Of a DNA stretch of 60,033 nucleotides, positions 1,317-44,498 are shown piece by piece. The DNA is from a virus (lineage: Duplodnaviria > Caudoviricetes), in the IMG/VR virus record IMGVR_UViG_3300037484_000683, positions 1 through 60,033 of that record, one strand, 5' to 3'. The translations under genes and the position numbers were made by a program. The notes beneath the pieces were generated by a model. That model saw nothing but the letters and a program-made list of their open reading frames with translations, was not told the DNA's origin and did not search any database. The stretch's first letter is position 1; every line of letters starts with the position of its first letter.

Positions 1317-2744
1317 TTAGTTGGGCTTTTTTTTTACAGGAGGATTGTTTTTATAATCCCAATCCTGAGAAGTCCATTTTTCAAATTCAGCCTCTTTGCG
1401 TTTTAGTAATTCGTCTGCCTCCTCCTCAGCTTCAGGCATGGTCTCATCCCGTGGAACAACTTCTACAGGCTGTTGAGCTTGCCTGGTTAATTCCGGGTTG
1501 GGGTCTAATCCCAAAACGGCCCGGTATTCGTCAACCGTTACGGCCTTCAGTCCCAGGGCTTTCTCAAACCTATCGGCCTGCACCAGCTTACGCTTGACGT
1601 AAGCGGGCGTATTGCCCAGATCATACATTACAAAAGAGCCGTCATCACCCTGTAGGTAGTATTGCCAATCGGATTGCCACCAGTTTAATTCCGGCTCCAT
1701 TGTGTCTTCCCAAAACATTAGCCGGTCAGTTTCTTTGTTTGAGTAGGTAGAGGTGACTAATTGTGGCCGGCTTTCAATGAGTGTAAGTGGCACCCCGTAC
1801 GGGCCGACTATGCGGCTTTCATCGCGGGCATCAATAGAACTGACATCCATCTCCTGGAAAGTGAAGCCGATACGCTGATATTTACCGCCCTGGTCCAGGA
1901 CTGCAACGCTTTCCTCGGCCCAATTCTCGGAACCGCCGTAGACCTCATTCCAACGCCGGCGGGCCGCGCTAACATCATCTTCTTGCATTGGCACATCAAA
2001 GGACAAAAGGCCGCTGGGCATTGCGCCGGCCTTAAAGAACAGTCGAAAGAACTTGGTCAGGTCATTGTCTACATCGGCGCTATGGGCGGCAGCGGAGAGG
2101 GGGGAGAGACCATAGCCCAAACCGTCAAGGGGGTCGCCGGGGTTGGGTAGCTTATTATGCATCACATCTTGGGGCAGGTAGGGCACCCCATCATTCCAAC
2201 TCCGGCCCTCCGGTACGTACCAAAAGCCGATAACCCGCTTGCGGTCAGTCGTTGGCACAATAAATACCCGGTCAGGGCGTAGATTGTACATCTCAGGGAT
2301 AGTGCCCCTGGAGCGGTTGAATATGGTAAAATTATTGCCGGATATGAGCCAGTAGACCCAGGCTTGTGACTTAAATTCAGCCCAGCTTTGGAAGGGGTTG
2401 GGTCGCATGCAGAGCGATTGCAGCCAGTGATTGGGGGGGAGTAATTCGGGCTGCTCAGGCGTGCCGGTGTAGGCCCGTAGGGGCACTTGAGTAGCCGCCC
2501 GTGTTTTATACATTATGGCAGCGTAAATAATAGCGTTGGCATTAAACCCCTCAGTGACATATGCCTCATAGTTGATTAGCTGCCATTGGGGTTGACCATT
2601 GACCCAGGTCGGCCAGATGAAGGGGATTTTCTTGACCTGCCCCCCGGTTGAGGTGGGAGCTTGCATAAAGCGCCGGTAGCCGTGTTGGTAGAATTGATAG
2701 GCCGCTTTGAGGCGATGCCAGGGAGAGGGTTTAGATTGGATCAT
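1317..2744 (-). CDS. Portal protein (HK97 family)
   Basis: LISGNNF, LRPDRV, GLSPL, GAMPSGLL motifs; follows terminase. Confidence 0.93.
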   Translation of the reverse strand: MIQSKPSPWHRLKAAYQFYQHGYRRFMQAPTSTGGQVKKIPFIWPTWVNGQPQWQLINYEAYVTEGFNANAIIYAAIMYKTRAATQVPLRAYTGTPEQPELLPPNHWLQSLCMRPNPFQSWAEFKSQAWVYWLISGNNFTIFNRSRGTIPEMYNLRPDRVFIVPTTDRKRVIGFWYVPEGRSWNDGVPYLPQDVMHNKLPNPGDPLDGLGYGLSPLSAAAHSADVDNDLTKFFRLFFKAGAMPSGLLSFDVPMQEDDVSAARRRWNEVYGGSENWAEESVAVLDQGGKYQRIGFTFQEMDVSSIDARDESRIVGPYGVPLTLIESRPQLVTSTYSNKETDRLMFWEDTMEPELNWWQSDWQYYLQGDDGSFVMYDLGNTPAYVKRKLVQADRFEKALGLKAVTVDEYRAVLGLDPNPELTRQAQQPVEVVPRDETMPEAEEEADELLKRKEAEFEKWTSQDWDYKNNPPVKKKPN

Positions 2745-2889
2745 TTGTACCTCAATATAATCTTGGCCACTTCAGAATGACTCATCTTCTTTTTAGCCAG
2801 CATCTTTTGAAAGTGCAGTAGCAAATAGATATGCCGCTTTTCAGGAGTTTTGTGTACCCAATAAAAGGGGAACCGAGGCAAAAATAGAG

Positions 2890-4572
2890 TCATCCCACAA
2901 AGACTCCTTGCTTAAATAATCTATTTGGAGCTACACACAAACAAAATCCATCACCATCATCAGGAGAGCGGCTAAACTTGTCCTTGAACTTCTCTTTTGA
3001 GACAAGTTGCTTTAAGTCCAGTCGGGATTGTCCGTTACTTGTTTTGATGACATACCCATATTGCCGTTCACACAAGTCCGTCTCAAGATTAGGAGACGGT
3101 GATAAAAGCCTGAGTACCTTTAATGCCTGCCCGGCGTGGTAATACATCTCAGTTACACTATCGGCAAACTTGTCGTTTTCCAGGGCGGTTCCATTATTAT
3201 GGACTTCAAAAACCTTAAAAAGATCAAACCAGCTTTGCAGGTCGGCATCCCGGCGCAAGTTGTCAACGCAAGTTGAATGGTAGCCCCCGCCGGCGTCAAC
3301 TCTGACCCATACCCGTTTGACACCCTTATCTCTCAACTTCTGGCAAGCCTTTTTGACGGCCAGGTAATAAGCAAAGCCATCTTGCTTGGCTATCTCGGTT
3401 TCTTTCCAAACCATGCCGGCGTGCCGGATATAGATCGTGCCTTTGTCGTTTCCATAGCGGGCCGCATCAACTCCTAGCCACGCCTCCTCTGGATTATCCC
3501 CATCATACGGGGGATTGCTAATAGCTGCCTCGTATCGCCCTGGTGGGCAGAATGTGTCATCGGTTCCTTTAGACGAAGCAATACCCAGGACGCGCCAGAG
3601 GGTTTCGAGCGTGGGCCGGTAAATGGCACCGGGTTGCCAGGGTAGTTCAAAGGTATAATCATCCGCATTGTGTTCGTTGACTACCTCGCAGTTTTCAAGC
3701 ATCCCGGCAACGTATTCACGTCTAACCGAGCCGGGGATTATCTCTTTATCCTCTAAAACATTGGGATGCTCCAAGCAACTAATCCGAAAGGATTTGACGT
3801 TTTCGCGCCGCCTGATTTTGTGCGCTTTACAGGTGGTGGTGCGAGGGTTTCGAAGGATCAAAACGATAACGATACCACCGGAGGCCATACTTTCTACCGC
3901 CTCCCAAATGAAACCGGGTATACCTTCGGCTTCATCTAAAACAAACATCAGGTATTTACCATGCTGCCCTTGCGCCCGTTCGGTTCCTGTGCCTTTGGCG
4001 TTGTTTGTGGCCTTACCCTTTACGAAATGATTGCCCTTATACTTGATACGCGGCTCTAAAAGCACCTCGCCGGGCAGGTTTTTACCATCTCTATCGGTGC
4101 GAATTTCTTTGAATAGCAAGTCATTGATCTGGTCATCACTTGGGGCAAAGCAGTAGATAATTGAGGGAGCAAAGCAATCAAAGAAGTGAGAAACAATACC
4201 GGCTGCCAGTTTGGTTTTGCCAACATTGTGACCGGCGTCAACCGATAACCAATTTTGAATAATTTGCCCCGGACGCCAGTATTCGAGATCATCAAGAGTG
4301 ATGTTACCTTGCTCAAAATCGTAACGCTCATGCTGCTGGCGGAGGGCTAAAATGTAAGCATCAAGTATCTCAGATTGCTTATGCCAGGGGGTCCAGCCCA
4401 AAAACTGTTGAATATAGCCGGGGTCAAAGCGGTAGGGGGTAAAGCGTTCATCAACCTGCTCTACCTCGCTCACCACCTCCGCCATAAACGCATCGGCCTG
4501 CGCTGAGGGCAATGATAAAAACCAGCGGGCTAAAGCGGGGTCAACCTGCGAAATGACATCACTCCGTAACAT
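2890..4572 (-). CDS. terL: Terminase large subunit
   Basis: Walker A AGHNVGKT, Walker B FVLDEAEG, nuclease motifs LGVDAARYGND and SPDDGD. Confidence 0.95.
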   Translation of the reverse strand: MLRSDVISQVDPALARWFLSLPSAQADAFMAEVVSEVEQVDERFTPYRFDPGYIQQFLGWTPWHKQSEILDAYILALRQQHERYDFEQGNITLDDLEYWRPGQIIQNWLSVDAGHNVGKTKLAAGIVSHFFDCFAPSIIYCFAPSDDQINDLLFKEIRTDRDGKNLPGEVLLEPRIKYKGNHFVKGKATNNAKGTGTERAQGQHGKYLMFVLDEAEGIPGFIWEAVESMASGGIVIVLILRNPRTTTCKAHKIRRRENVKSFRISCLEHPNVLEDKEIIPGSVRREYVAGMLENCEVVNEHNADDYTFELPWQPGAIYRPTLETLWRVLGIASSKGTDDTFCPPGRYEAAISNPPYDGDNPEEAWLGVDAARYGNDKGTIYIRHAGMVWKETEIAKQDGFAYYLAVKKACQKLRDKGVKRVWVRVDAGGGYHSTCVDNLRRDADLQSWFDLFKVFEVHNNGTALENDKFADSVTEMYYHAGQALKVLRLLSPSPNLETDLCERQYGYVIKTSNGQSRLDLKQLVSKEKFKDKFSRSPDDGDGFCLCVAPNRLFKQGVFVG

Positions 4573-5110
4573 CTTTGTCCTGTAGGATTGCTGCCTGTTG
4601 TGTCATTGCTCTAAATTGCCGCTTTGCTTCTTCCGCATCAATATTGGGGGGGAGTTTGTCACGCCAGGAGATTTCGACTTTATCATTATACATGCCGTGA
4701 TAGCGCATTATTTTATCAAGTGCGGCCTGAGCGTCGTAAAGTTCAAAATGGGTTTTATAATGAACTTTGCCATTCTTATCTTCGTAAACATCCATAGTCA
4801 GCCTTTTAATCAGATGGGATTTAGGGTGGTTTTTCAAATCCGCCATTAACTGAATATCGGCAAACTCGCCCAGGTCGCCCCGCGCGTGTTCAGATAGCCG
4901 GGTAAGGGCTTCATCGGCTGACATAAGACGCTCGTCTAACCGCAACCTGATGTAGTCCATTATCTGTACTTTTCTGTAGTTATCAGAGCCTATCTTTGCT
5001 AACGAAACATCGTTGCCATCATAGCCGGCCCGTCGGGCTGCCTCGGTTTTGTTGAAGGTTTCAAGGTAGGCATTGGCCCACGCTTTTTGCTTGTCTGTTA
5101 AATCTGCCAT
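4559..5110 (-). CDS. terS: Terminase small subunit
   Basis: N-terminal LTDKQKAWANAYL..NKTEAARRAGY HTH; upstream of terL. Confidence 0.9.
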   Translation of the reverse strand: MADLTDKQKAWANAYLETFNKTEAARRAGYDGNDVSLAKIGSDNYRKVQIMDYIRLRLDERLMSADEALTRLSEHARGDLGEFADIQLMADLKNHPKSHLIKRLTMDVYEDKNGKVHYKTHFELYDAQAALDKIMRYHGMYNDKVEISWRDKLPPNIDAEEAKRQFRAMTQQAAILQDKDVTE

Positions 5111-5160: not shown

Positions 5161-5880
5161 TTATTTAACCGCTATCCAGCCGGCAAAATTCATCCACCGC
5201 CAAAAACAATCAATATGATTAAATCCGGCCATCTTCAAAAGCTCCTCATTCCAGCGAGCCGTAACCGGAACTAACACCCCCTCAAGGCTTAATCGCTTGC
5301 GTTCTATTTGTTCCTGAGTATAGCCATTATGAGCTTTTAGACCGTAGTAGAGTTTTACCATTAGCTCATCTAACTCAGCATCAGCGCCTAACAGTTTTTC
5401 AACCAGGATCAAGGCGCCGCCAGGGGAAAGGTGTTTGTAAATATTCCTGATAATCCGCTGTCGGTATTCAATCGGTGTAAACTGCAAAGTTAGAACACAA
5501 AGGGTGACGCTTGAATAAACTGGGGGGTAATCCGTTCTTAAATCAAGCTGCCTGATGTCTACCGTCTTGCTATTGATATAGCCCTCAAACCGGCTGCGAC
5601 AAGCCTCTAACATTGGCAAGCTAACTTCTACGCCGATGAAGCGATTACCAGCGCCGTATTTATCAATAAGCTCTGCTATAGCCTCACCCCGGCTACAGCC
5701 CAGGTCTACAATATCGGTGTTAGGTTGCCGGTACTGGCAAGCAATATCAAGGCAGGCTTGACGCATCACGGCGTACTGAGGGATTGACCGGGCCAGCATA
5801 TCATCAAAGACGTGAGTTACATCAGGATCAAATTCCCACTTGCCGACGGGTAGGGTTTGGTCAATCATTTGAGTTTGCAT
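5161..5880 (-). CDS. cmoA: CmoA-like carboxy-SAM synthase (class I SAM fold)
   Basis: WEFDPDVTHVFDDMLARSIPQY, DLGCSRG, LTLQF, GYTQEQIERKRLSLEGV and NFAGWIAVK follow CmoA family patterns. Confidence 0.85.
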   Translation of the reverse strand: MQTQMIDQTLPVGKWEFDPDVTHVFDDMLARSIPQYAVMRQACLDIACQYRQPNTDIVDLGCSRGEAIAELIDKYGAGNRFIGVEVSLPMLEACRSRFEGYINSKTVDIRQLDLRTDYPPVYSSVTLCVLTLQFTPIEYRQRIIRNIYKHLSPGGALILVEKLLGADAELDELMVKLYYGLKAHNGYTQEQIERKRLSLEGVLVPVTARWNEELLKMAGFNHIDCFWRWMNFAGWIAVK

Positions 5881-7448
5881 AGTATCTCATCTCTAATTAC
5901 CTGAGCCACCGCCGCCATCATCACCGGAGGCACAGCCCGCCCCAATCGCTCCCATTGCTGACTGTAGGTTCCTGTTAGTTGAAAGTCATCAGGAAAGGCA
6001 CAGATACGCTTAAGTTCGGCAATGGTGAATTTTCGCTTTTCGGTCAGTCCGGCCTTGTAGACAAGGCCGGACTGACCTCTGCCGTGTGTCATTATCGTAG
6101 GAACAACATCGTTAGGCCCAAATTCTCGCTCCGCCCCTGTTACAGCATTCCAACCGCTTTCAGGCTCAACTACCCAATGAGTCCCTATGCTATCGCTTAG
6201 AACAGTTGGCGCGGGTTGGTCGGTAATATCACCATCATTGCCAAAAGCCCCGCGCTTATCTCGATAAGCGCGGGTTTCAACTTCAAATTGTCCTGACCCG
6301 CCGCCGGCTATAATAGTCGGTGCGAGCGCGGCGAGATTGTCAATCTCGCCGCGCTGTGAAGAGTGACCATTTTTGCCACCCTGTTTTATTTGCGCCTCAA
6401 CTAGCGCAGGCGGGAAACGTCCGTTTCCCGCCTGCGCTCCTGTTCCTATTGTGCCGCTTGGGTGTTGCCCGGCGTCTTGCCAGCCGCCACCGCCAAAACC
6501 GCCATTGTCTCCCTGCCTGACAATCCAGGGAATAGCCTCTCTGACACTATACCGATATGTTAACGGCTTCGGGTAAACCGGCTCTAAGCCCAAATCATTT
6601 CGCACCCCGATAAAGATAATCCGCTGCCTCATCTGTGGGACGCCTAACCACTGGGCGTCAAGTAGTTTAGCTTTGACGTTGTAACCACAATCTTTTAGCT
6701 CCTGTAGGATTAGCTTAAAGTATCCTTTTGCTGTTCCCTTGACAAGCCCGCTGACATTTTCGGCTACAAAGACTTTAGGCTGTAACCCATTTAGGATTCG
6801 GGCGTATTCAAAGAACAGATCATCAGTGCGCTGTTTGGTATCGCTATAGTTTTTGACTTTACCCCAACCGGCCTCACGCTTGCCCGCCGTTGAGAACGAA
6901 GCGCACGGCGGGGAGCCGTCCATTAGATCAAGTTCACCAGCCTTTAATCCGATTGCTTCTAATATTTCCCCTGGCTCGACCGCGCGAATATCACGGGTAT
7001 CTAAAATTGATCCGGGGTGGTTAAGCCGGTAAACCTCCTGGGCTGCCGGGATAAACTCGGAAGCCCATAGGACTTTGAAGCCGGCCATGCGATAGCCCAA
7101 ACAGCTACCGCCACAGCCTGAAAATGTACTTATGGCAGTAAAGCCATTCCAGGGTAGGGCGGCTATATCGGTCATTAGAGGGACTTGGTAAGGGGGTTTA
7201 TTTTCTACTCGCTGCTTTGTCATTTTGCCATCATTTTCTATGTAATACCTTACCGACCTATTGGCCTGCACCGTTGGAAACGGCTTGTCAGTCACATCTA
7301 CAAATAAGTGACCGCTGCCCCCCCCGCGTAACCTTAGACCATTGGCATCTTCAACAAAGATGCGCTGATTATTTCGGCTGGCCGGCCCATTCGTATCCAC
7401 ATTTTGGGCAACAGTACGCGGTTTCAATATCTTCACCATATTCTCCAA
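5865..7448 (-). CDS. C5 cytosine DNA methyltransferase fold, predicted carboxymethyltransferase
   Basis: FSGCGG, GSPPC, ENV and QMRQR motifs; motif X reads GRAV instead of GNAV; start position uncertain. Confidence 0.9.
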   Translation of the reverse strand: MENMVKILKPRTVAQNVDTNGPASRNNQRIFVEDANGLRLRGGGSGHLFVDVTDKPFPTVQANRSVRYYIENDGKMTKQRVENKPPYQVPLMTDIAALPWNGFTAISTFSGCGGSCLGYRMAGFKVLWASEFIPAAQEVYRLNHPGSILDTRDIRAVEPGEILEAIGLKAGELDLMDGSPPCASFSTAGKREAGWGKVKNYSDTKQRTDDLFFEYARILNGLQPKVFVAENVSGLVKGTAKGYFKLILQELKDCGYNVKAKLLDAQWLGVPQMRQRIIFIGVRNDLGLEPVYPKPLTYRYSVREAIPWIVRQGDNGGFGGGGWQDAGQHPSGTIGTGAQAGNGRFPPALVEAQIKQGGKNGHSSQRGEIDNLAALAPTIIAGGGSGQFEVETRAYRDKRGAFGNDGDITDQPAPTVLSDSIGTHWVVEPESGWNAVTGAEREFGPNDVVPTIMTHGRGQSGLVYKAGLTEKRKFTIAELKRICAFPDDFQLTGTYSQQWERLGRAVPPVMMAAVAQVIRDEILCKLK

Positions 7449-12197: not shown

Positions 12198-13769
12198 TTA
12201 GGTTCCTCCTGCAAACATAAAGGTTTGGGCGGCGTGAATTTCCTCAGCCGCTAAAATGGCTTTGGGGTCTGATTGGCCAAAGCGGAGCCAATCAGACCAC
12301 CATTCGAGGCGACGGCAGGCAATGCTGGCAAATTTTGGATCTATTTCTACCGCGAGCACTTCATCCCAACCGGCCAACAATGCTCCGATTGGAAGCGATC
12401 CCGTTCCGCTGGTGCAATCTATCATCCGCCGGGGGGCGTACTCAGCCGGCGGTAAGAATAGGCCCGAAATATGTTTGCACAATTTTATAGGCTTCAGCGT
12501 GGGGTGATTATTTTCTTGCCACGTCGTGGCGAATCGCGGTTCTCTTTCCAACCCGCCAGGATTGACCCGGTGGCGCTCCGATAGCGGCATGCCGGACAGG
12601 CCGGCGTTACGCTCGGCTACCTGGACTTTACCCGTGTAAAAAACGGGGTTTGTTTCGGCCAGGCGCTCGGTTATTTCGTGCGTCCAATCGGCCTGATAAA
12701 AATGATAACTCTTTTCATCACCCGTCTGCGCATCAAGGCGGGCCACCGGACAATCCGGGTGGCAGAGGTAGTCAGGGACAGCGATCATGCCGGAGGCGTC
12801 GCCTTTGGCCCTGTAGGGGGTATGTTTCTCCATTTTGTTGTAGATTCCATTTTTACCCATTGCCTGCCCAGGCGGGTCGACTACATCTCCGCTATTGTTT
12901 TTAATCATCTTCACCCCCCGATACTCGCAGCCCGGATGATGCGTTATCATCAGATGACCCGGATGACCACGCCCCGGCATACCGTTTTTACCGGCCTCGA
13001 TATTGACCGCGCCCGCGCCGGTTGCCGTGATGGTGTCTAGCCGGTCAAGGCCGTGCCATGGCGCTTGGGCGATTAGAATCGGCTCAAGCTCAGGAGCTAG
13101 GGGTGAGCCGTATTGATGGCCGGCCCAGGTGCGGGCGAGGGGGGAAAGCGGAGTCCCGTTTGAAATATCCCCCTTGCCTTTGACGTGGGGTACTATCTTG
13201 TCAAACGCTTCGGCCTTGCCATTTCGGTAATCACCGCCGCTATTTACCTTGCCCATATGCCCGCCGTTGATTCTGTCGGTTCGATTCGCCCCTGCCCGCT
13301 TATCAAGCAAAAGCCCCATATTTGTACCATTCGGTTTCCCGGACGAATATACCCAGCCAAGTTGATACAGCGCCGGATTCATCACATAGCCCGCGCAACG
13401 CTGGGCAAAAGCAAGTAAGTCCTGCTTGCGCGGGTGGCTGAAGCTGGCCGTAAATGCACCGGGGTGCAGGTGAGGCAACAGGGCGGCCCAAGTTTCGGGG
13501 CGATAGGCCAGATCAGTATCCCAACGAGCGCCCATAAAACCGGCCGATTGCCGCGCAAAGGCCCCGTCGCGGCCAAATTTAGCCGGGGCGCTATTAGGAT
13601 TGCCAAAACGTTTGGTTTGAGACTCCAGGTTATACGGCCAGTCATCAAAGCAAAAATGGAAAAAAGATTGCTCATACTGCCTCTGCCAGAGTGACCCGGC
13701 CAAGTAATCCAACACGTCACCCTGAACGACTGTCCACTTTTCGCCCTGGCCTATGATTTTATAACTCAT
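12198..13769 (-). CDS. Amino (N6A/N4C) DNA methyltransferase, beta class, with divergent motifs
   Basis: DWPY in place of DPPY, HPTLKP, DCTSGTGS and EID motifs in beta order. Confidence 0.8.
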   Translation of the reverse strand: MSYKIIGQGEKWTVVQGDVLDYLAGSLWQRQYEQSFFHFCFDDWPYNLESQTKRFGNPNSAPAKFGRDGAFARQSAGFMGARWDTDLAYRPETWAALLPHLHPGAFTASFSHPRKQDLLAFAQRCAGYVMNPALYQLGWVYSSGKPNGTNMGLLLDKRAGANRTDRINGGHMGKVNSGGDYRNGKAEAFDKIVPHVKGKGDISNGTPLSPLARTWAGHQYGSPLAPELEPILIAQAPWHGLDRLDTITATGAGAVNIEAGKNGMPGRGHPGHLMITHHPGCEYRGVKMIKNNSGDVVDPPGQAMGKNGIYNKMEKHTPYRAKGDASGMIAVPDYLCHPDCPVARLDAQTGDEKSYHFYQADWTHEITERLAETNPVFYTGKVQVAERNAGLSGMPLSERHRVNPGGLEREPRFATTWQENNHPTLKPIKLCKHISGLFLPPAEYAPRRMIDCTSGTGSLPIGALLAGWDEVLAVEIDPKFASIACRRLEWWSDWLRFGQSDPKAILAAEEIHAAQTFMFAGGT

Positions 13770-19058: not shown

Positions 19059-19747
19059 TGGGTGGCCTCCATCGCTTCGAGTAGTTGTTTCCCGATCCAT
19101 TCACAATATGCTGGGGGAATCGCCTGGGCCATTTCGTCTCTGGTCATCCAATCTATTTTCATTGCAACCCGTCCCGATTCGGCCTGAAAATTATGACCTA
19201 CACAGGTTATAAATTCCCGGTTTTTCAATTTGTGGTAAGCCCCCTTCGACGGGGGCATTTTGTAGCTATGATTGCAGGGAGCCGGGGGCCAGTAAATCGG
19301 GGGGTTGGTTTCAAACAGACGATGCCGGTAAACTCTCAGGCCGGGAAACATAGAACCACAGAGGGTTATCGGGTTGACAAGCGGGGCACCCTCTACGTTT
19401 TCGATTACGTAGGCTAGTCCGGTTTCCAGCAATAAATCACGTACCGGCCCAACCAGGTCAGGATGATTGCCATTAGAGAGGGAGGCGGTTACACTGTAAA
19501 ATTGACACGGTGGACTTGCGCTTATCGCTGCAAAATCCGATAGATACCAGCGCTGGCCAGTGTTGTCGGTGATGCAGCCGCCGGCAATGAGAATCCGCAA
19601 GCTCTCCAGGGCGTCCATTTGAACGAAGGGAAACGGGTAACGTGGCATAGGGGCAATATCAACCCCAACGACTTCAAAGCCGGCCTGATTGTAGCCAACC
19701 GAGCAACCGCCGGCCCCGCAAAAGGCGTCGAGCAGAAGCGGCTTCAT
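19055..19747 (-). CDS. Short C5 cytosine DNA methyltransferase
   Basis: LDAFCGAGG, ASPPCQ, IENV, RHRLFE. Confidence 0.88.
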   Translation of the reverse strand: MKPLLLDAFCGAGGCSVGYNQAGFEVVGVDIAPMPRYPFPFVQMDALESLRILIAGGCITDNTGQRWYLSDFAAISASPPCQFYSVTASLSNGNHPDLVGPVRDLLLETGLAYVIENVEGAPLVNPITLCGSMFPGLRVYRHRLFETNPPIYWPPAPCNHSYKMPPSKGAYHKLKNREFITCVGHNFQAESGRVAMKIDWMTRDEMAQAIPPAYCEWIGKQLLEAMEATQ

Positions 19748-31242: not shown

Positions 31243-32375
31243 GTATCGGCCTGTGTGCCGTTGTTTTGGTTATATTCATCTCGGTTTGGTTCGCCGCCGA
31301 GGTGAGCTTCATCCTGTATTCGGTTGGCGGCGTGTTTCTCGCCACCGGCGGCGTCAGCGTCTATGCCCGGTTTTCGGCAATCCGGCATAACCGAGAGATG
31401 GCCCGGATCAGTCTGGAGCGGGAGCGTCAGCAGTTGCGCCGGGAAACGGCAGAGGCAAATAAGGCCGAACTGTTGGCCGGGGTCGTCTTATTTTCTCGAA
31501 ACGAACGCGCCTTGCTGCTACCTGGCAACGATATGAGATTGATAGAGGCGTTAGCCAGCAATGGCGCAACGTCGGACCCGCTGGCCCTACCTGCGCCCGC
31601 GCTGGACTTCTACGCCGCCATGTCGGACCCGCTGCAAGCGTATGCGATTATCGGCCCACAGCGGGTAGGCAAATCCATAATGCTGCAACACCTGACCCAG
31701 CACTTGACCCGGCAGGGCCGAACCTGCCTCGTTATCGGCACAAAAGCTAAACCGGGCGAATGGGTCAATTGTCGCCGCTACATCGGCAATGCTGATACTC
31801 AGGCCGCGCTCGATTCCATCATAGCCGAGGTAGGTAAGCGCATCCCTGGCAATATCACCACGCCGCCGCTGTGTGTGGTGTTGGACGACTGGCTGAATAC
31901 CGTCGCTCTTAACCCCGATCTGGCCGAGGCGTTTTTTGTAGATGCCGCCACCCGAATGCTGACCGCCGGAATCGTGCCGTACTTCCTCTTGCAGAGTGAT
32001 AGCAAAACCGACTGGGGAACCCGGCATGGGGCGCAACTCAAAAACAACTTTACCCACCTGATACTCAAAGCGCCCCGGATTGACGGTCAGCTAGACCATA
32101 GGGCGCTACAAGGTGTGATGATCTACCCCGGCGAAAAAGAACAGCACCCCGTCCGTTTGCCGGTGGGCCTGCCGATATTTGGCGACGGTGAGCCGGTGGT
32201 TGACCTCCCTGCCCCAGAGCCGAATGGACAGGAGCGCCGGATATTGGAATTGATAGACGCTGGCTGGGCACGCCGGGCGATTACTGAGGAGGTTTGGCAG
32301 CAGCGCGGCAATTTTTACAACGCCAAACTTGAGGCCATAGCCCGGCGATTTGGCCGTGAAACTGGAAATACATAG
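31194..32375 (+). CDS. Membrane-anchored P-loop ATPase (FtsK/HerA/TraB-like) with C-terminal HTH-like region
   Basis: Two N-terminal TM segments, coiled coil, IIGPQRVGKS, VVLDD, LLQS. Confidence 0.75.
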   Translation: MQSEIRLRTTSFKLYLSIGLCAVVLVIFISVWFAAEVSFILYSVGGVFLATGGVSVYARFSAIRHNREMARISLERERQQLRRETAEANKAELLAGVVLFSRNERALLLPGNDMRLIEALASNGATSDPLALPAPALDFYAAMSDPLQAYAIIGPQRVGKSIMLQHLTQHLTRQGRTCLVIGTKAKPGEWVNCRRYIGNADTQAALDSIIAEVGKRIPGNITTPPLCVVLDDWLNTVALNPDLAEAFFVDAATRMLTAGIVPYFLLQSDSKTDWGTRHGAQLKNNFTHLILKAPRIDGQLDHRALQGVMIYPGEKEQHPVRLPVGLPIFGDGEPVVDLPAPEPNGQERRILELIDAGWARRAITEEVWQQRGNFYNAKLEAIARRFGRETGNT

Positions 32376-36450: not shown

Positions 36451-36479
36451 TTGACTTATCCATACATTGGGTATATAAT
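36451..36479 (+). promoter_or_regulatory. Promoter of the RAMP/array cassette (leaderless first gene)
   Basis: TTGACT-17 nt-TATAAT; ATG lies 7 nt after the -10 box. Confidence 0.85.
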
Positions 36480-36485
36480 GTCTAT

Positions 36486-36623
36486 ATGATTAAAATAAGT
36501 TTTTATATCACCAAAAAACAAAAGAAGGCTCTTGAGGACTTAAACGAATTAAGTTTGTCAGAGCATATCAGGCGGGCCATAGATGAATATTTGGCCCGTC
36601 TCAGAAAAGAAAGGAAAGAATAG
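36486..36623 (+). CDS. Ribbon-helix-helix (CopG-like) regulator, 45 aa
   Basis: Manual ORF MIKISFYITKKQKKALEDLNELSLSEHIRRAIDEYLARLRKERKE; missed by the track. Confidence 0.85.
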   Translation: MIKISFYITKKQKKALEDLNELSLSEHIRRAIDEYLARLRKERKE

Positions 36624-36625
36624 TT

Positions 36626-37207
36626 ATGTACACAATTCTCGTTTCCGTTGAAGGCATCGCCCCGTTGATGCAGCACCGTTACCCGCTGCCCGACTTTGCC
36701 GATTTGAGCAAGGGCGGCAAAAAGAAAACGGGTGAGCAGGATTACAGCCAGGAGTGGCGGGAATATCTTTACGTCTCGCCCGATGGTGACATCTACCAGC
36801 CTGCCACCCATTTTGATGGGGCGATGGTCAAGGCCGCCGCCGGTTACAAAATCCAGGGCGCAAGGGGCAAGACCTATAAAGACCTTTTCAAAGGTAATGT
36901 TTTTGTCAGTCCTGATGCTATCTATCATGGTGTTAAAGCTCCTGAAAATCTTGACGCTGATGCTGATAAGCCACTTTACCTTGATGTTAGACCCGTCGTT
37001 GTCCAGCGGGCGCGGGTGGTGCGAATCCGGCCCTGCTTTGCTCCTGGCTGGAAACTCAGTTTTGAGATAACCGTCCTTGATGACCAAGTACCACATAACG
37101 TAGTTAATGAGGTTCTTTCCCTTGCCGGTCGTACCGTTGGCGTTGGCGACTTTCGCCCGCGCTTTGGCCGGTTTATGGTCACCCGGTTTGAGGTTGCCAA
37201 GAATTAA
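36626..37207 (+). CDS. Small solo RAMP/Cas7-like RNA-binding protein
   Basis: First strand VSVEGIAPL, IYQPATHFDGAM helix motif, WKLSFEI strand, C-terminal Gly-rich loop AGRTVGVGDFRPRFGRF; directly followed by repeat arrays. Confidence 0.75.
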   Translation: MYTILVSVEGIAPLMQHRYPLPDFADLSKGGKKKTGEQDYSQEWREYLYVSPDGDIYQPATHFDGAMVKAAAGYKIQGARGKTYKDLFKGNVFVSPDAIYHGVKAPENLDADADKPLYLDVRPVVVQRARVVRIRPCFAPGWKLSFEITVLDDQVPHNVVNEVLSLAGRTVGVGDFRPRFGRFMVTRFEVAKN

Positions 37208-37209
37208 CC

Positions 37210-37278
37210 TTGTGGTGAGGAGTGGCCTGGTCTGGTATGGTACGGTCGGGTGCGGTTTGGTTTGGTGGGGTAAGGTTT
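37210..37278 (+). ncRNA. Putative guide RNA unit 1
   Basis: NN = GA GT CT CT AT AC CG GC TT TT GG AA TT. Confidence 0.65.
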
Positions 37279-37282
37279 CTTT

Positions 37283-37391
37283 TTGTGGTATGGAGGGCTA
37301 TGGCGTGGTGGGGGTCGGTGGGGTAATGTTCGGTACGGCCTGGGATGGTTGGGCGTGGCGAGACAAGGCGAGGTACGATATGGTGAGGTTA
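37283..37391 (+). ncRNA. Putative guide RNA unit 2
   Basis: NN = AT GG AT GT GG TC GG AA TC AC CT AT TG GT GA AA GA AC AT GA TA. Confidence 0.7.
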
Positions 37392-37395
37392 CAAT

Positions 37396-37479
37396 TTGTG
37401 GTAGGGGACGGTCGGGTCGGGTGCGGCAAGGTAAGGCCAGGCAGGGCGGGGCGAGGTAAGATAAGGTGAGGTATGGAAT
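37396..37479 (+). ncRNA. Putative guide RNA unit 3
   Basis: NN = AG AC CG CG GC AA AA CA AG GG GA AA AA GA AT AT. Confidence 0.65.
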
Positions 37480-37484
37480 CCATT

Positions 37485-37568
37485 TTGTGGTATGGATTGG
37501 TTAGGCTAGGTGATGTCAGGCGCGGTAAGGTAAGGTCAGGTCAGGTGGGGATTGGTATGGTGTGGCTA
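37485..37568 (+). ncRNA. Putative guide RNA unit 4
   Basis: NN = AT TT TA TA GA CA GC AA AA CA CA GG TT AT GT TA. Confidence 0.65.
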
Positions 37569-37587
37569 TTCAGTTAGGGGTAAATCA

Positions 37588-37851
37588 GTGTCAAGATATT
37601 TTCAAATAGATGAACTCCCAGGATTAAGATTTTTATGGTTTTCCCGTCTCTCCCTTGAGACGTGGCGACCCTTGAAACAGTTTATCTATGAACGCGATAG
37701 AGGGATTTGCAGCTACTGCAAAACTCAATTCCCCTATGAACAGACTCATTGCCATCACGCTTTAGAACTTTCCGAAGGCGGTACAAATCATCCAAGTAAC
37801 CTCAAAACTCTTTGTCATAACTGCCATAAAATTAGACATCCTTTTATGTAA
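37588..37851 (+). CDS. HNH endonuclease (87 aa)
   Basis: RDRGICSYC, HCHH, GGTNHPSNLKTLCHNCH; GTG start after AGGGG. Confidence 0.92.
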   Translation: MSRYFQIDELPGLRFLWFSRLSLETWRPLKQFIYERDRGICSYCKTQFPYEQTHCHHALELSEGGTNHPSNLKTLCHNCHKIRHPFM

Positions 37852-37853
37852 CC

Positions 37854-37978
37854 TTGTGGTAAGGGCGGGGCGGGGTACGGCACGGCGCGGCGTGGCGTGG
37901 CGAGGAACGGTCTGGCAGGGCAAGGTGAGGAACGGCACGGCGGGGCAAGGTGAGGCCTGGCAAGGTATGGATAGGGCT
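37854..37978 (+). ncRNA. Putative guide RNA unit 5
   Basis: After a 6-nt first unit GGTAAG, NN = GG GG AC AC GC GT GT GA AC CT AG AA GA AC AC GG AA GA CT AA AT TA CT. Confidence 0.75.
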
Positions 37979-38001
37979 AGAAATTCTATCCCTAATTTTT
38001 T
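37972..38001 (+). terminator. Terminator closing the cassette
   Basis: TAGGG-C-TAGA/TCTA-T-CCCTA imperfect stem followed by ATTTTTT. Confidence 0.6.
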
Positions 38002-40552
38002 AATCCTGACTTTTGAACTGTTCCTTCCATAACATCCATCCCGTAATCGTTGGACTACCGGAGGTTGCCACAAAGCTGCTAATAGTATTAGCAGCGGGTA
38101 GCAAGCTCCATGTCCCAAAATCCGAATTAGCTAAAATCGCATCTGGTCTAGGCCCAAAGAAATTAGATATTATTGATTTTTCGGTAGGGGTTAGGTCAAT
38201 CGTCAAACGCTCACCACTCAATAAGCTATAATTGAATAATAATTCTCGCCCGCTGGTTTCGTTCTTTAATGTCTCAATAATGCCCGTAGTGCCACCGCTG
38301 CGCTCGTAGATGATTTTGGGGAAGGCCGGGGCGTTGCCCTCGTTGGTTGCCGTGATCTTGCCGGCGAAGTTGCCTGTGCCGGTGGTGTCAAATCCGAGCC
38401 ATAAATTGTATTTTTGAGGTACGATAGAATCAACATACTTACTAGCTAAAATAGCTTGCGGAGTAGCCGAGCCTGGTAAATTTATATCTAAGTGTGCCCA
38501 GGCGTAACCATTCCAACGAGCTATTCTATCTGCCAGTGTGATACCCCCTGAGCTAGTAAATGCACCCGAAACGTAAAGGATACCATCATTGCCATAACTT
38601 AAAGCCTGTCCGGTATTATTTATACCACTACCCAACGCGATAAAGCCTGTTCCATCCCAAACGGCTATTCTACTAGCACTTACACCTCCCGCCGTTGTAA
38701 AGGCCCCGGTAACAAAAAGTAATCCATTAGGGGCTATGGTTAAAGCAAATCCTTGTGAGTTAAGTCCAGAGCCTAATGCCGTAAAGGCACCACTAGCCCA
38801 TTTTGCTATACTATTGACTGTTACCCCCCCGGCTGTTGAAAAATCCCCCGTTACATAGATAGCGCCGTCTATTCCTGTTGTTAAGCCTCGGCCTATATCA
38901 TTTAAGCCCGTTGACATAGCACTAAAGGCCGTACCGCTCCAGGAGGCTATCCGATTTGCGGCCACACCTCCAATAGTAGTAAATGACCCTGTAGCGTAAA
39001 GCGTGCCATCATGACCAAAAGTTAGGGAATTTACATCGTTATTTGCCCCTGTGCTTAGTGCGTTCCATGCACTGCCATCCCATCGGGCAATTCTAACCGT
39101 GTTGGCTACCCCGCCAGCTAGTGCAAATTCTCCCCCAATATAAACCGACCCATCTGGGCCTATAACAATACATGTTATAATCCCATTTGTGCCCGTACCC
39201 ATCGCTGAATAAGTAGCCGTTTGTTTGTTGTATCTAACGATATAATCAGCGTTGGCAATATTATCAAAGTTGAGGAAGTTACCTGCGAAATAGACATAAG
39301 TTGCATCTTCGGCAATCCCCCGAATTATCGTGTAAGTACCCGCCGCATTAGGCGGCCCCAATGCCGACCACTGCCCTGTTGATCGTAGTCGCGCTGCTAC
39401 TATCCTAAACGTCGCACTGTCATTCGTATCAAGCAGTGCCGCCGATTCGCCTATTTCAGTCCAATAAGGAGCCGGTGAGAAAAACCGCACCGCCACCCGT
39501 TCCCAGGCGCAAGGCTCCGAGGCTTGTATGTCTCCCTCTAGCCCCCCGTCGTAATGGGCCGCAATCTGCTTATGGATCGTTGCACCCTGATAGCGCAATC
39601 TGACCGGCTGCACCCCGTTCTCATCTTCGGGGTAGGTATCCGGCGATAGAGCATTAAGTAGCACCTGTTTTTTACTGTGGAAATCACTTTGACTTGTGCC
39701 GGTGATGACGCCGGTCAAGGTAAAGACCCGGCTGTCAATTTTGAGGCTGTTTAGCTCACCCCCCGGCAAAGCGGCATATTTATCTACGCCCAAATCCTGG
39801 GGAGCCGTGCCCACGCCCGACATACCCCCTATTTTTAGGTTATAGTCATCTTCTAAATCTTCTACCTTCCCCCCGGCTCGACTGGCCGCACTGCGCTGGC
39901 TGGTCGCTGCGTTCTCTGGCCCAAGCCATTCGCAACCTTCCTGAGTACCATCACAGTAGGTAGTCCAATATTCCTTCGCCTCCACCTGAATCCCGTCAAG
40001 GTAGAAGTCACCAGAGCCAGCGCCGTTTTGGTGTACTTCCAGTAGTACCGAGGCATTGGCCTGTGCTGCTGGGAATTGCAAACCGTACAGTGCCCAATTG
40101 GAATCTATTTGTTCCAGCAGGGTGGGAGCCGTAAAGGTTGCGCCGTTAAGTGACCAATCCCAGGCCGCGGGCAATGTACCACGCACGCGCATGGTAACGT
40201 AGTGAATGGCATTGGTTAAAGCCGATAAAGTAAATTCAATGCCCTCATTATCGGCATTGGTCTCCACCCGATAGGAATAGAGGCCATAGTGCTGATAGGT
40301 GGTAGACCGGGTAACGGTGGTGCCAGCTTCGGCGGCAAAGTTGCCGGTTAGTTCAGCACTAGGATTCATCACATAATTGATCGTGGCTTCCGGTGTTATG
40401 AGTTTCCAATCAGACATACCACCCCCGATATTGCAGGGATTCTCTGCTGACAGAATCGCAGGCAGCCAGACACAATACCCCTGACACTGTGCCCCAACAG
40501 GCAAGGCCGATAGCAGCCAAAGCAAGCAAACCGTTAAAAGTCGTTTCCACAT
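38000..40552 (-). CDS. Distal tail protein with carbohydrate-binding-like and beta-propeller insertions
   Basis: NYVMNPSAE...LDGIQVE module, repeated LY.GG.FT.AGG...IA.WDG blades, NEGNAPAFP; follows the tape measure; second start possible at 40417. Confidence 0.8.
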   Translation of the reverse strand: MWKRLLTVCLLWLLSALPVGAQCQGYCVWLPAILSAENPCNIGGGMSDWKLITPEATINYVMNPSAELTGNFAAEAGTTVTRSTTYQHYGLYSYRVETNADNEGIEFTLSALTNAIHYVTMRVRGTLPAAWDWSLNGATFTAPTLLEQIDSNWALYGLQFPAAQANASVLLEVHQNGAGSGDFYLDGIQVEAKEYWTTYCDGTQEGCEWLGPENAATSQRSAASRAGGKVEDLEDDYNLKIGGMSGVGTAPQDLGVDKYAALPGGELNSLKIDSRVFTLTGVITGTSQSDFHSKKQVLLNALSPDTYPEDENGVQPVRLRYQGATIHKQIAAHYDGGLEGDIQASEPCAWERVAVRFFSPAPYWTEIGESAALLDTNDSATFRIVAARLRSTGQWSALGPPNAAGTYTIIRGIAEDATYVYFAGNFLNFDNIANADYIVRYNKQTATYSAMGTGTNGIITCIVIGPDGSVYIGGEFALAGGVANTVRIARWDGSAWNALSTGANNDVNSLTFGHDGTLYATGSFTTIGGVAANRIASWSGTAFSAMSTGLNDIGRGLTTGIDGAIYVTGDFSTAGGVTVNSIAKWASGAFTALGSGLNSQGFALTIAPNGLLFVTGAFTTAGGVSASRIAVWDGTGFIALGSGINNTGQALSYGNDGILYVSGAFTSSGGITLADRIARWNGYAWAHLDINLPGSATPQAILASKYVDSIVPQKYNLWLGFDTTGTGNFAGKITATNEGNAPAFPKIIYERSGGTTGIIETLKNETSGRELLFNYSLLSGERLTIDLTPTEKSIISNFFGPRPDAILANSDFGTWSLLPAANTISSFVATSGSPTITGWMLWKEQFKSQD

Positions 40553-43500
40553 CTATGCTCCCAAAAACATCTGCATAACCCCGAAGTCATTTATCACGCT
40601 TGAGCTATCAGCCCGCGTGTTGACCGTCATACTGAAATAGTTATTCGTGGTGCGCCCCATCCCGGCAACGTCTTCAATGCTACGGCCCGCCGGCGCAACT
40701 AAAACCCGCTCGCCCGATTGCACCCGCAAGGGGAAGCTATCGTTAGGGAAGCCGGGGGGAACTTGAAAACCGAGCGGCCCCGTGCCAGAGGCAAAGCCCA
40801 GGCCCCCCGCCGCGCCCGATGCACTTCCGGCCCCCTTTGCCGCTTGCGCCGCCGCCTCTGCTGCCTCTTTCATTTTCTCAAATTCTTTTATGGCCGCCTT
40901 GATCGCCTGGATTAAATCATCCTCTATTTTATCAGCGGCTTTCTTGAAGGCATCCCCGGCCGATTTCATCCCCGATACAATAGCCGTTGTCAGGGCAACC
41001 GAGGCTGAATTTGCCGCCGCAATTATACCAATGAGGCTATTTACACTGCCGATAGTAGTTGTAATCTGGGCTACTATTTGAGCCGTTGAAGATGTCCAGG
41101 TTGCCACCAGTAAGGGTAGGTGGACTATATAAATGGTACTCATAGTCAGAATGAGCATCGTTAGCGGCCCAACTGTCAAGCCTGTAACTTGCTCCGTAAC
41201 GGTGGTGATAAACAGGGTAAAACTCGCACCTAACATTACTACCTGTAGAGTGGCGGTGGTAAAGAAGGTGGTAAAAGTCACGCCCAGCATTGTTACCAGG
41301 GCCGGGATAGTTTCAGTCAGGGTGGTGATAAGTACACTAAAATCTATACCGGTGCCCTCGCCCCCCCCGGATAAGGCTCCAAAAACAGCGCTTAAAACGG
41401 TAGTGATACCACTGGACAGCGTTTCAAAAACTGCCATAATCGGCGCAGTCAGGGTGGTAAACCAGGAAATGATACCTGTCACCATGTCAGGAATAATCGA
41501 ATGGCCTACCAAAGTATCAAAAAGACCTTGCCAAAAAGCGGTTATCGAAGCTACCAGCCCGCCAAAAAACCCAACGATAAAACCACCCATACCCAGGATA
41601 CTGGCCTGAATCGTGGTAACAATACCACTGATAAATGTAGCCATACCCGAAAATCCCGTTTGAGCCGCCAGAAGCGCCGCCGGAATATCGCCGGCAAAAA
41701 CCGCTGTCCAAAAATCCATCAGGCTGGTAACGGTAACAATAATGCCAGTAATAGCGGTTGATACGCCCATGACTAATTCGTCCCAAACACTAATGATTGT
41801 TCCTACCGCCCCCACAACCGCCCCCACTAACCCCACTACTATTGAAATAGCGACCAGAATAGCGGCTCCAATTCCGGCAAAAACCAAACCTGTAGCAGTC
41901 AGCAGAGCATTACCTACATCGGCCCAATTGATGCCAAGACTGGTAAATGTGGCTCCGATTTGTTCAATTGCTGGCCCGACAGAGGCCGTTATCCCCTGAA
42001 CAATGCCATTAAAAACGGCCTGTATGACCGTCCAGGCCGTTAGAACTGTCGCGGCAATAACCGGCCAGTTTGCCGTAAACCATTCGACCAGCCCGGCCAG
42101 AGCAGGCACCACAATATTGATTCCGGCCACAATCCCGCTGACCACCACTGAGAATCCAACCGCCAGCGCGTTTAAGATATCGCCGGTGGTGATGCTTTCC
42201 ATCTGTGTGCCAAACGCGGTAGCAAAATCAGTCACCAAAGCTGACACCTGGGCAAAGGTACTTTGTAGAATCCCAACCGTCTCATCGGTCAGCCCTAGCG
42301 CTCTAAGTAACCCGCCAGTATCGCCGGACCCGAAGAGACCCTCGCTACCAAAAGTCGCCAAAAGCGCTTTGGCCTGTTCGATCCAGCCGGAAACAATTGC
42401 CAGGGTATCCGGGCCAAACCCGAATTGGTAGAGAGCCATTCTGATGCCCTCGCCCCAATCCCGCCCAAAAGCGTTAAAAATGGCCCGCCCCTTTGACATC
42501 CCCTTAGCCAGCGTCTTTACCAAATCCTCGCCCATCGTTGCCATTGGGCCGCCCAAAACAAAATCACTCAGCACCCCGGCAATTGCCGCCACTGCCGGTG
42601 TTGCCGCGTCAACCAGAGGCCGCAAAAAGGTACGCGCCCCAATAACAAAAATATCTGAGAAAGTGGATTGCAATCCCTTAACTGATGTCGCCATTTCCCT
42701 GGCAGTTCCAGCAAAGGTGTTTTGAGAGAAGCGGGTAACGGCGGCAAAAAGCTCGTCAAATATTTCGGGCGAGTTCTCTGCTTGTGCGTTAAACTCCTCA
42801 ACCGACATTCCCATTTCAACGCCGATGACTTTAGCCAGGTCAATACCGAGCCGGCGCAACTGGCGCAGGTCAACCTCAGTTAGTTTGCCGATTCTCTTCA
42901 CCTGAAATAGCTGATCGGCGGCAAAACCCAGACTGTCAGAGGTGATGCCCACCGCCCCGGCGAGATCCAAAAAGGCCGGGACAAACTCTTTGGTTTGCTC
43001 AACGCCAAGCCCTGCGGCAATAGCGTATTTGGTGGTCATCTCAACGGTTTCGGTTTCGAAGGGGGAAACAACGGCCAACCGAGAGACAAAATCAAGCAGG
43101 TCTTTTGTCTCCCTGCTGGCAATTTTGAAGGCATCGGCCTGGTCCATTGTCTGTTGCCAGGCTGATTTTGTGGAGGTGGTGTACTCGGTTTCGGTAGTGG
43201 TCAGACCGGCTAACTCGCGCTCTGTAGCCTGAATTGACAAAGCTAGTTGATCGTGCTGTGCTTTGGCCTTGATGACATTTAAGCCATTTTCACCATAGGC
43301 AGCGGTCAGATCAATGATGCGCTGCTGCTGCTCCTGATAGGTTGCCCGTTGGGTCATCAATTTGGCGTTTAGTTCATCGGTCGCAATGGCAAGCTCTTCC
43401 TGACTCATCACCTGTTTCGTCACCGCCGCCGTTACCGTCTCGGTAGTCTGCTCATACATATTATTGGCGGTGAGTAGAGCTTTCAACGAGGTTTCAAGCT

Positions 43501-44008: not shown

Positions 44009-44216
44009 CCAAGTGTATGCCTGTGCTTTGCCGCTTTTAATTCGTATTCCTGACATCTCATATCCTGCAATACTTCAAACAGAAATTGCCCGCGCTGTTC
44101 GTGAAAAACAGAGGGTGGAATGTGATACATCATCCTGACCTGATAATCCAGGTACTCAGGTGGCGCTTGACCTGTTTTGGTAATCAGGTACTCGGTCAAG
44201 CGCCATTCTAGTTTTT
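44005..44216 (-). CDS. Tail assembly chaperone, frameshift extension (gpT-like)
   Basis: -1 frame open from the GGAAAAAAC slippery site at the end of 44208..44498. Confidence 0.75.
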
Positions 44217-44498
44217 TCCGTTTTTAGCCACCGGGTTAGCCATCTGCATTACGGCATTTCTAAACTGCTCGCTCAAATCCCGCATCTGGCGCAAGGTGAG
44301 TTGCCGAAAGAATTGCGTCATTTCCTCTTTAGAAATGCCCTGGACAATGGCGTATTTTTCCATCATCTGGCGAATCTTGGTGGGGGAATTGGATTCCATA
44401 TCTTCCAAATCTCCCCACTGAAACTCATCCATATTGATTTTGTCCAGGTCTAAAACGATCTGAGTTGGCTCTGTTTGTTCGTGAATTAGTTTTGCCAT
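44208..44498 (-). CDS. Tail assembly chaperone (gpG-like)
   Basis: Between tail tube and tape measure; ends GGA AAA AAC TAG. Confidence 0.82.
   Translation of the reverse strand: MAKLIHEQTEPTQIVLDLDKINMDEFQWGDLEDMESNSPTKIRQMMEKYAIVQGISKEEMTQFFRQLTLRQMRDLSEQFRNAVMQMANPVAKNGKN

Follow-up and report, generated by a model that had tools for sequence, protein, structure and literature searches.

The DNA analysed here is a 60,033-base stretch of an uncultivated tailed phage (Duplodnaviria; Caudoviricetes; IMG/VR record IMGVR_UViG_3300037484_000683), hereafter the window. It carries a VIPR locus, a kind of system already described in 2026 preprints, with a vipr gene, five arrays of vrRNA units and a gene for a small HNH endonuclease. 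The second array (array 2) holds, in the two variable bases (NN) of its five-nucleotide units, a series that reads in codon phase as the Walker A loop of a P-loop nucleoside triphosphatase (NTPase). This NN string is a genuine P-loop-coding pattern, its source gene being unlocated. With a probability of about 0.8, we consider that array 2 is or once was a guide aimed at the gene of a P-loop NTPase in some other element.

According to the main text of the preprint that describes it, a VIPR system consists of Vipr, a minimal RAMP protein, an accessory vap gene and vrRNAs of 9–16 YNNGG repeats (10.64898/2026.04.26.720920). The NN pairs with double-stranded DNA by a '1 nt skip rule', the skipped base being mostly the codon wobble position; in nature the system is directed against competing phages, satellites and prophages, and the threshold for a target is 80% of NN bases (10.64898/2026.04.26.720920). 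In a companion preprint, the Vipr filament is described as sequestering each GGY and presenting the NN (10.64898/2026.04.26.720927).

The NN string of array 2

Five arrays of NNGGY-type units lie on the plus strand between positions 37210 and 37976, each opened by a TTGTGGT leader. The same 5-nucleotide periodicity occurs neither on the minus strand nor elsewhere in the window. Among the 88 units of the five arrays, G stands at position 3 in 83 and at position 4 in 82, T or C fills position 5 in 72, and the NN take 15 different dinucleotides. These are tandem GGY/NN arrays next to vipr, 12–23 units long, where four or more units in tandem define a vrRNA. Because the NN vary, the arrays are missed by Tandem Repeats Finder; Rfam has no match in the window and ARAGORN finds no tRNA there.

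Array 2 reads ATGGA GGGCT ATGGC GTGGT GGGGG TCGGT GGGGT AATGT TCGGT ACGGC in units 1–10 and CTGGG ATGGT TGGGC GTGGC GAGAC AAGGC GAGGT ACGAT ATGGT GAGGT in units 11–20. The corresponding NN series is AT GG AT GT GG TC GG AA TC AC CT AT TG GT GA AA GA AC AT GA; on re-reading the letters, its first twelve members are identical to those quoted in a first-pass annotation of this DNA, which had proposed that array 2 decodes to a Walker A motif. Taken as codon positions 1 and 2, the whole series gives [IM]G[IM]VGSG[KN]STL[IM][CW*]V[DE][KN][DE]T[IM][DE]. The decode of the hGxxGSGKSTL type is thus re-derived as [IM]G[IM]VGSG[KN]STL[IM] in units 1–12, followed by [CW*]V[DE][KN][DE]T in units 13–18; the array probably closes with a 3′ handle made up of its final two units (ATGGT GAGGT).

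We estimated how often such a motif arises by chance by shuffling the NN units 200,000 times, either within arrays or pooled, and scoring all five arrays in both orientations. The loose pattern GxxxxGK[ST] appeared in 1,122 (within arrays) or 1,580 (pooled) shuffles, that is 0.56–0.79%, and GxxGxGK[ST] in 75 or 93 (0.04–0.05%); since the Walker A motif was picked post hoc, these figures overstate the significance and are not clean p-values. GxxGSGKSTL was found in none of the 200,000 shuffles under either scheme, and a zero of this kind withstands even a large post-hoc penalty. The expectation that composition-matched random arrays rarely give P-loops is borne out by the same count. The P-loop peptides that the annotation had quoted from the phage itself do exist, at 31650 (plus strand), 4236 and 15350 (both minus strand).

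The ten-unit core (units 2–11) occurs 34 times in 185,579 GTDB species genomes. All 34 occurrences are in-frame Walker A motifs, G[MI]VGSGKSTL, with the lysine at AAN, inside open frames of 166–1263 amino acids. In the eight that we tested for domains, four belong to ABC_tran, three to pPIWI_RE_Z and one to dNK.

The codon-phased code that had been proposed for the arrays is the published 1-nucleotide-skip rule, and it is also confirmed in the window through array 5 (below). We call this code correct because the published rule matches it and because array 5 aligns in frame. The earlier suggestion that array 2 itself gives independent support to the code stands in part: its P-loop lies far beyond chance, but the independent validation came from array 5.

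Judging from the SUSP1 system, protomers of Vipr would polymerise along each vrRNA, hold every GGY and present each NN, which would pair with the template strand of a double-stranded DNA target, skipping every third base. The skipped base would normally be the wobble position, so that the NN of array 2 would form a wobble-blind copy of about 18 target codons, namely those that encode, in a P-loop NTPase, the Walker A loop (G-[IM]-V-G-S-G-K-S-T-L) together with the beginning of the next helix. The gene would most likely be carried by a competing phage, a satellite, a plasmid or a prophage in the same host, and the outcome would be silencing, or cleavage by the HNH partner in its presumed role. 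Such a target would have almost no mutational escape, because synonymous changes fall on the skipped wobble base and non-synonymous ones are constrained by the loop. Codon-periodic targeting is reported to block mutational escape in a further preprint (10.64898/2026.10.15.759431).

Target searches and competing explanations

Several results speak against a working guide of this kind. The scaffold of array 2 is the most degenerate of the five, with four of its twenty units (GGGCT, AATGT, GAGAC and ACGAT) lacking GG. Exact windows covering units 1–12, 2–11, 5–14 and 9–18 have no occurrence each in the IMG/VR viral contigs. Across eleven related phage records array 2 matches at most 22 of 34 bases, a level that shuffled guides also attain, and a scan at the protein level, covering the window and five relatives, is null as well (41 against a shuffled maximum of 40). 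The furthest extension in GTDB covers 13 of the 20 units (L045 and L063) or 28 of the 40 bases (L038 and L039), under the published 80%. In addition, we infer the expression and processing of array 2 only by analogy, from ribozymes that lie between the arrays of relatives.

The first-pass annotation had proposed a pattern search over units 1–12 and an extension of any match beyond the Walker A motif; the former returned no exact hit in the viral contigs, and in the latter units 13–20 extend no match among the 34 GTDB occurrences. In L045 and L063, units 15–20 are all mismatched and unit 14 is the sole match beyond unit 12. Its claim that array 2 is aimed at an ATPase or kinase gene elsewhere therefore keeps the P-loop-coding string in its favour, but no sequence in the collections searched matches more than 13 of the 20 units. 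Array 2 had no hit in the phage's own genome with up to 3 mismatches, and a 17-unit pattern with up to 3 mismatches gave nothing in ten related phage records. A free scan of the phage's own genome reached at best 24 of 40, the same as shuffled guides; the lack of a self-target of array 2 agrees with the published absence of self-targets. The scans of the large collections required exact windows of 10–12 units and a target with scattered mismatches would escape them, for which reason the absent target is weak evidence. For arrays 1, 3 and 4 no target rose above the null in the free scan of the window, the protein-level scan or the eleven related phage records.

Most natural occurrences of the array 2 core string are supplied by a family of pPIWI_RE_Z proteins of about 1000–1260 amino acids (L038, L045, L046 and some 16 similar loci among L037–L070). 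The domain is N-terminal in the three members tested, and the Walker A consensus of the family is [VI]GMVGSGKSTL[IM].

A decayed scaffold is what one would expect if array 2 were a retired P-loop guide, an explanation that shares our view of its origin and departs from it on present function; we hold it possible, at a clearly lower probability. Perturbation of GGY abolished silencing in the experiments reported in the main text of the VIPR preprint (10.64898/2026.04.26.720920), which counts against present activity in an array with four units without GG, and no collection that we searched yielded a target. Against this, internal degeneracy is described there as frequent in accepted vrRNAs (10.64898/2026.04.26.720920), and the missing target carries little weight for the reason given above. 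It is unlikely that array 2 is a real vrRNA whose Walker A reading is coincidental and whose target, if any, lies outside the P-loop genes. The motif was singled out once five arrays had been viewed, the NN composition is coding-like overall (70% purine at position 1, 65% A/T at position 2), units 13–20 are unlike the usual helix after Walker A, and the IMG/VR and GTDB scans found no target; but even GxxGxGK[ST] came up in only 75–93 of the 200,000 shuffles and the full motif in none, and the ten-unit string found in nature is an in-frame Walker A in every one of its 34 occurrences.

We find it somewhat less probable still that array 2 is aimed at a host gene such as a defence ATPase, with VIPR acting as an anti-defence device. 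The closest partial matches, L045 and L063, do lie in a family of proteins of about 1030 amino acids whose three tested members carry pPIWI_RE_Z, a domain of PIWI-RE defence islands, but these matches end at the conserved P-loop and the family merely shares the consensus VGMVGSGKSTL; moreover, the natural targets named in the main text of the preprint are phages, satellites and prophages (10.64898/2026.04.26.720920). That the arrays are not guides at all, and represent instead a coding region rich in Gly, Trp and Arg or a DNA repeat forming G-quadruplexes or R-loops, is very improbable. An open frame of 120 amino acids does span arrays 1–3, and a GG every 5 nucleotides could build two-tier quadruplexes. 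However, the frame overlaps the end of vipr, the 5-nucleotide period makes three frames equivalent and G-rich sequence is stop-poor; hammerhead ribozymes lie between the arrays of relatives, the decode of array 5 corresponds in frame to a gene family, and the neighbouring protein is Vipr, whose solved homologue is reported to bind such RNA (10.64898/2026.04.26.720927). The frame itself (37107–37469, plus strand, starting within vipr) is best explained as a by-product of a G-rich, stop-poor periodic sequence and not as a gene. Candidates without support were dropped: a protein sponge of the Csr or TRAP type, a cluster of Chi sites, an anti-Shine-Dalgarno sponge, a decoy of protospacer-adjacent motifs, a rut site and a telomere-like repeat.

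Vipr, the cassette and array 5

By profile and by model, the protein encoded directly upstream of the arrays is Vipr, a minimal RAMP protein with a predicted Cas7-like fold. A profile built from 112 family members matches PDB entry 36pp_D, 'SUSP1 Vipr protein', over nearly its full length (E 3.7e-27). The AlphaFold2 model obtained from the family alignment has a predicted local distance difference test score (pLDDT) of 95.1 and a predicted template modelling score of 0.89, while a single-sequence fold reached a pLDDT of only 33.5. Foldseek finds 142 PDB matches to this model at E ≤ 0.001; the top folds are Cas7-type subunits (Cmr4, Csm3 and type VII Cas7), with probability 1.0 and TM-scores of 0.52–0.59. 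The family alignment has a conserved Gly-rich C-terminal segment, where conservation is complete or no lower than 90% at G168, G172, G174, D175, R177, P178 and G181. The gene falls in phrog_4652; no Pfam or PADLOC family matched it.

Relatives of Vipr are numerous: a search of 5.8 billion sequences gave 407 among its candidates, and there are 2,577 cluster representatives at E ≤ 0.001. A tblastn search with Vipr recovers 106 phage records, for the most part from phages of Escherichia (72 records) and Salmonella; 6 carry the name Felixounavirus, and identity among the matches listed is about 29–31%. One of them, phage allfine of the genus Felixounavirus, has NNGGY arrays on both sides of its homologue. 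All eight viral loci that encode a Vipr relative have NNGGY arrays directly downstream, and among 26 other viral contigs located by pattern, at least 14 have similar arrays. The NN of the window arrays are wholly unlike those in relatives whose Vipr is 71–82% identical. In three of the seven loci searched with Rfam, a Hammerhead_II ribozyme lies between two NNGGC arrays (40.1–41.8 bits; gathering threshold 37); the Vipr homologues at these loci are about 46–53% identical to that of the window. Because hammerhead ribozymes separate the arrays of these relatives, we take the arrays to be transcribed and processed RNA.

A 189,632-base AT-rich contig of a jumbo phage (L007, L008) has at least six separate NNGGT arrays; those at L007 1112 and L008 11450 close with GAGGG and, behind it, a terminator hairpin, and so resemble single vrRNA genes in scattered positions. 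As for the host of the window phage, tblastn with the terminase gave only matches of up to 27% identity and HIP1 is not enriched in the window. Vipr homologues occur in 5 of 401 genomes of one phylum and are merely 26–35% identical.

The cassette (36451–38001) is a single plus-strand unit placed between two minus-strand tail genes, Dit-like and Gp37-like. It runs from a promoter-like site through the RHH gene, vipr, arrays 1–4, the HNH gene and array 5 to a hairpin with a T-run (Table 1). The promoter-like site, the only one in the region against a shuffle mean of 2.0, is weak alone. Hairpins equivalent to the final one follow the terminal arrays of L027 and of phage G006. The RHH protein has weak homologues elsewhere in phages G008 and G001/G002. 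The listed TTG start of the HNH gene overlaps array 4, hence the start position is putative; HNH is co-conserved behind vipr in G001/G002, G003 and G006, at 53–71% identity.

Table 1. Features of the cassette and of compared loci. Positions refer to the window unless another record is named; the last four rows pair each terminal array with the site in its own flanking gene.
Feature	Position	Strand	Details
Promoter-like site	36451-36479	+	TTGACT, 17-nucleotide spacer, TATAAT; 11 of 12 consensus positions
RHH gene, first in cassette	36486-36623	+	45 amino acids; Pfam RHH_1, E 2.9e-05
vipr	36626-37207	+	193 amino acids; minimal RAMP protein
vrRNA array 1	37210-37282	+	TTGTGGT leader, 12 units
vrRNA array 2	37283-37395	+	leader TTGTGGT at 37283-37289, twenty units at 37290-37389
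vrRNA array 3	37396-37484	+	15 units
vrRNA array 4	37485-37566	+	about 15-16 units
HNH endonuclease gene	37552-37851	+	99 amino acids; Pfam HNH, E 2.1e-09, residues 53-96; candidate vap accessory nuclease
vrRNA array 5	37854-37976	+	leader TTGTGGTA; 20 guide units starting at 37862, with 3 handle-like ones after them
Terminator-like hairpin and T-run, cassette end	37969-38001	+	1 site against shuffle mean 2.0; weak alone
Near-self site of array 5	38240-38299	-	Dit-like tail gene (open reading frame 38000-40552), residues 752-771, SGGTTGIIETLKNETSGREL
Hammerhead_II ribozyme, L030	1075-1132		downstream of Vipr homologue
Hammerhead_II ribozyme, L031	4647-4704		downstream of Vipr homologue
Hammerhead_II ribozyme, L033	479-536		downstream of Vipr homologue
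Terminal guide and flank, window	array 37854-37976, site 38240-38299		own flank 31/40 NN; BLOSUM 82 vs shuffled maximum 46
Terminal guide and flank, G006	2419-2548 and 2179		own flank 26/46 NN; BLOSUM 66 vs 48
Terminal guide and flank, G003	4617-4716 and 4444		own flank 18/24 NN; BLOSUM 51 vs 46
Terminal guide and flank, G001/G002	G001 about 41168-41227 and 41543		own flank 19/30 NN; BLOSUM 46 vs 46

In G006 (2565–3403) the HNH gene lies directly behind vipr with no arrays between them, where the window (36626–37851) has four, which implies that the internal guides come and go together, as one block. The heptamer TTGTGGT occurs 14 times over both strands of the window, five of these being array leaders. 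The sequence TTGTGGTA is also present at 19230 and 30257 (plus strand), with hairpin-like sequence directly after it; these extra sites could represent a shared promoter, processing or handle motif, or remnants of solo vrRNA ends.

The NNx code is valid for array 5 in this window. The array decodes to [RS]GGTTAVV[DE]TL[RS][KN][DE]TTG[KN][DE]L and aligns in frame with the phage's own allele of the adjacent Dit-like tail gene, at SGGTTGIIETLKNETSGREL, with the NN on codon positions 1 and 2 and the skipped base on the wobble position. Other phages match it at 34 of 40 NN bases (G006), 33 (G007), 32 (G010) and 31 (G008), while 100 shuffled guides run over 11 phage records give a mean of 24.7 and a maximum of 27. 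At the published level of at least 80% of NN, array 5 thus has targets in G006, G007 and G010, and array 2, with 28 of 40 at best among the sequences searched, has none. Three of 120 homologues of the tail-gene C-terminus (P0272, P0322 and P0330) are compatible with array 5 at 19 of 20 guide units. An exact scan of the viral contigs with array 5 gave nothing, and its targets surfaced only through the tail-gene homologues. No match covers its last three units (AAGGT ATGGA TAGGG), which look like the 3′ ends of the other arrays and probably form a handle. In all four cassettes with a similar decoded peptide the match came from the sense orientation, and the P-loop of array 2 is in sense as well.

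The terminal vrRNA of G006 decodes to a peptide like LTEYLITKTGQAPPEYLDYQVRMMYH, encoded in the window at 44122–44199 (minus strand), with 32 of 52 NN matching and BLOSUM scores of 64–71 against a null of 45–48. This site lies just below the stop of the open reading frame 44208–44498 and upstream of one of 1076 amino acids; it may be a frameshift extension of a tail assembly chaperone.

Elsewhere in the window, 6-base-pair palindromes are strongly avoided (GAATTC 0, GTGCAC 0, CTGCAG 1 and GCGCGC 1, where 14.7 of each would be expected), GATC is half as frequent as expected, and the phage has several DNA methyltransferase genes (5865–7448, 12198–13769). Together, these point to restriction pressure.

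Relation to known systems and possible homing

Seven VIPR types are distinguished in the main text of the preprint, including arrays interspersed with hammerheads (types I and V) and nuclease or helicase vaps (types III–V); types III and V are over-represented in cellular defence islands and aimed at viruses (10.64898/2026.04.26.720920). The legend of its fig. S21 lists the HNH domain among Vap proteins (10.64898/2026.04.26.720920). The present locus resembles type II of SUSP1 in having the same Vipr RAMP of about 190–200 amino acids with GGY/NN arrays beside vipr, the same NNx reading of coding sequence with the skip on the wobble base, a phage-borne location and no self-target at or above 80%. 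It differs in that its Vipr is only about 29% identical to the Felixounavirus homologues, its candidate accessory gene encodes an HNH protein of 99 amino acids instead of a predicted DNA-binding Vap, and an RHH gene leads the cassette. Its arrays are also longer (12–23 units, against 9–16 in SUSP1), abut one another, start with the TTGTGGT leader and have no long pseudoknot tail, and the targets recognised here are relatives' alleles of the phage's own structural genes, not a satellite. With types III–V it may share an HNH protein as Vap, and the arrays of its relatives L030, L031 and L033 are interspersed with hammerheads as in types I and V; unlike types III and V, the cassette sits within a phage tail-gene module and not in a cellular defence island.

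A broader likeness is that to the Cas7 subunits of class 1 CRISPR effectors (Csm3, Cmr4 and type VII), which have the same fold and present their guide protomer by protomer with regularly unpaired positions. However, the locus has no CRISPR repeats, cas genes or adaptation module, the guide has a period of 5 and the target one of 3, where Cas7 effectors have 6 and 6, and sequence identity is 10–17%.

In all four distinct HNH-bearing cassettes compared (the window, G001=G002, G003 and G006), the vrRNA behind the HNH gene resembles the C-terminal part of the convergent flanking gene. The decode is similar to the flank, never identical, and the cassette stands at a different genomic site in each phage. 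Matches to the own flank comprise 57–78% of NN, every one below 80%. G001/G002 is marginal by score; its top match among 11 genomes lies about 270 base pairs from the array. In G007 and G001/G002 the Dit-like and Gp37-like genes are only about 20–50 base pairs apart, an empty site, and the cassette of the window fills this gap.

It is conceivable, though we regard it as tentative, that the vipr-vrRNA-HNH cassette spreads by RNA-guided homing (marker exclusion). Directed by the terminal guide, the HNH protein would reach the cassette-free allele in a co-infecting relative, and repair would copy the cassette in; substitutions would immunise the element's own flank. Array 2 and the other internal guides would serve as additional weapons or be directed at different sites, in which case the site of array 2 would lie beside or inside a P-loop gene. 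Alternatively, the resemblance may reflect plain competition with close relatives, or guides generated from neighbouring DNA. The word 'homing' is absent from the main texts of two of the preprints (10.64898/2026.04.26.720920 and 10.64898/2026.10.15.759431), while their supplements or the third (10.64898/2026.04.26.720927) may treat it.

In layout the cassette resembles mobile nucleases. T-even phages have free-standing homing endonucleases of the HNH and GIY-YIG families, small nuclease genes placed, as here, between conserved phage genes, and TnpB and IscB are guided by omega-RNA. The T-even enzymes and the RNA-guided TnpB/IscB share with the window a site in the flanking gene of cassette-free relatives and a substituted own flank. 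In contrast to homing endonucleases, recognition here would come from the Vipr-vrRNA filament and not from the nuclease; cleavage and homing are proposed only.

A noncontiguous, wobble-skipping code was thus recovered by reading raw sequence alone, and the locus adds an example of VIPR from an uncultivated phage with an HNH partner. As a guide against a P-loop gene, array 2 would aim at the least mutable codons, those of the Walker A loop, and so illustrate the escape-proofing logic of the preprint authors. The target family of array 5 is legible from the neighbouring gene, so that the prediction of targets in this clade has an internal positive control. If true, guide-directed homing would link VIPR to homing endonucleases and to TnpB/IscB.

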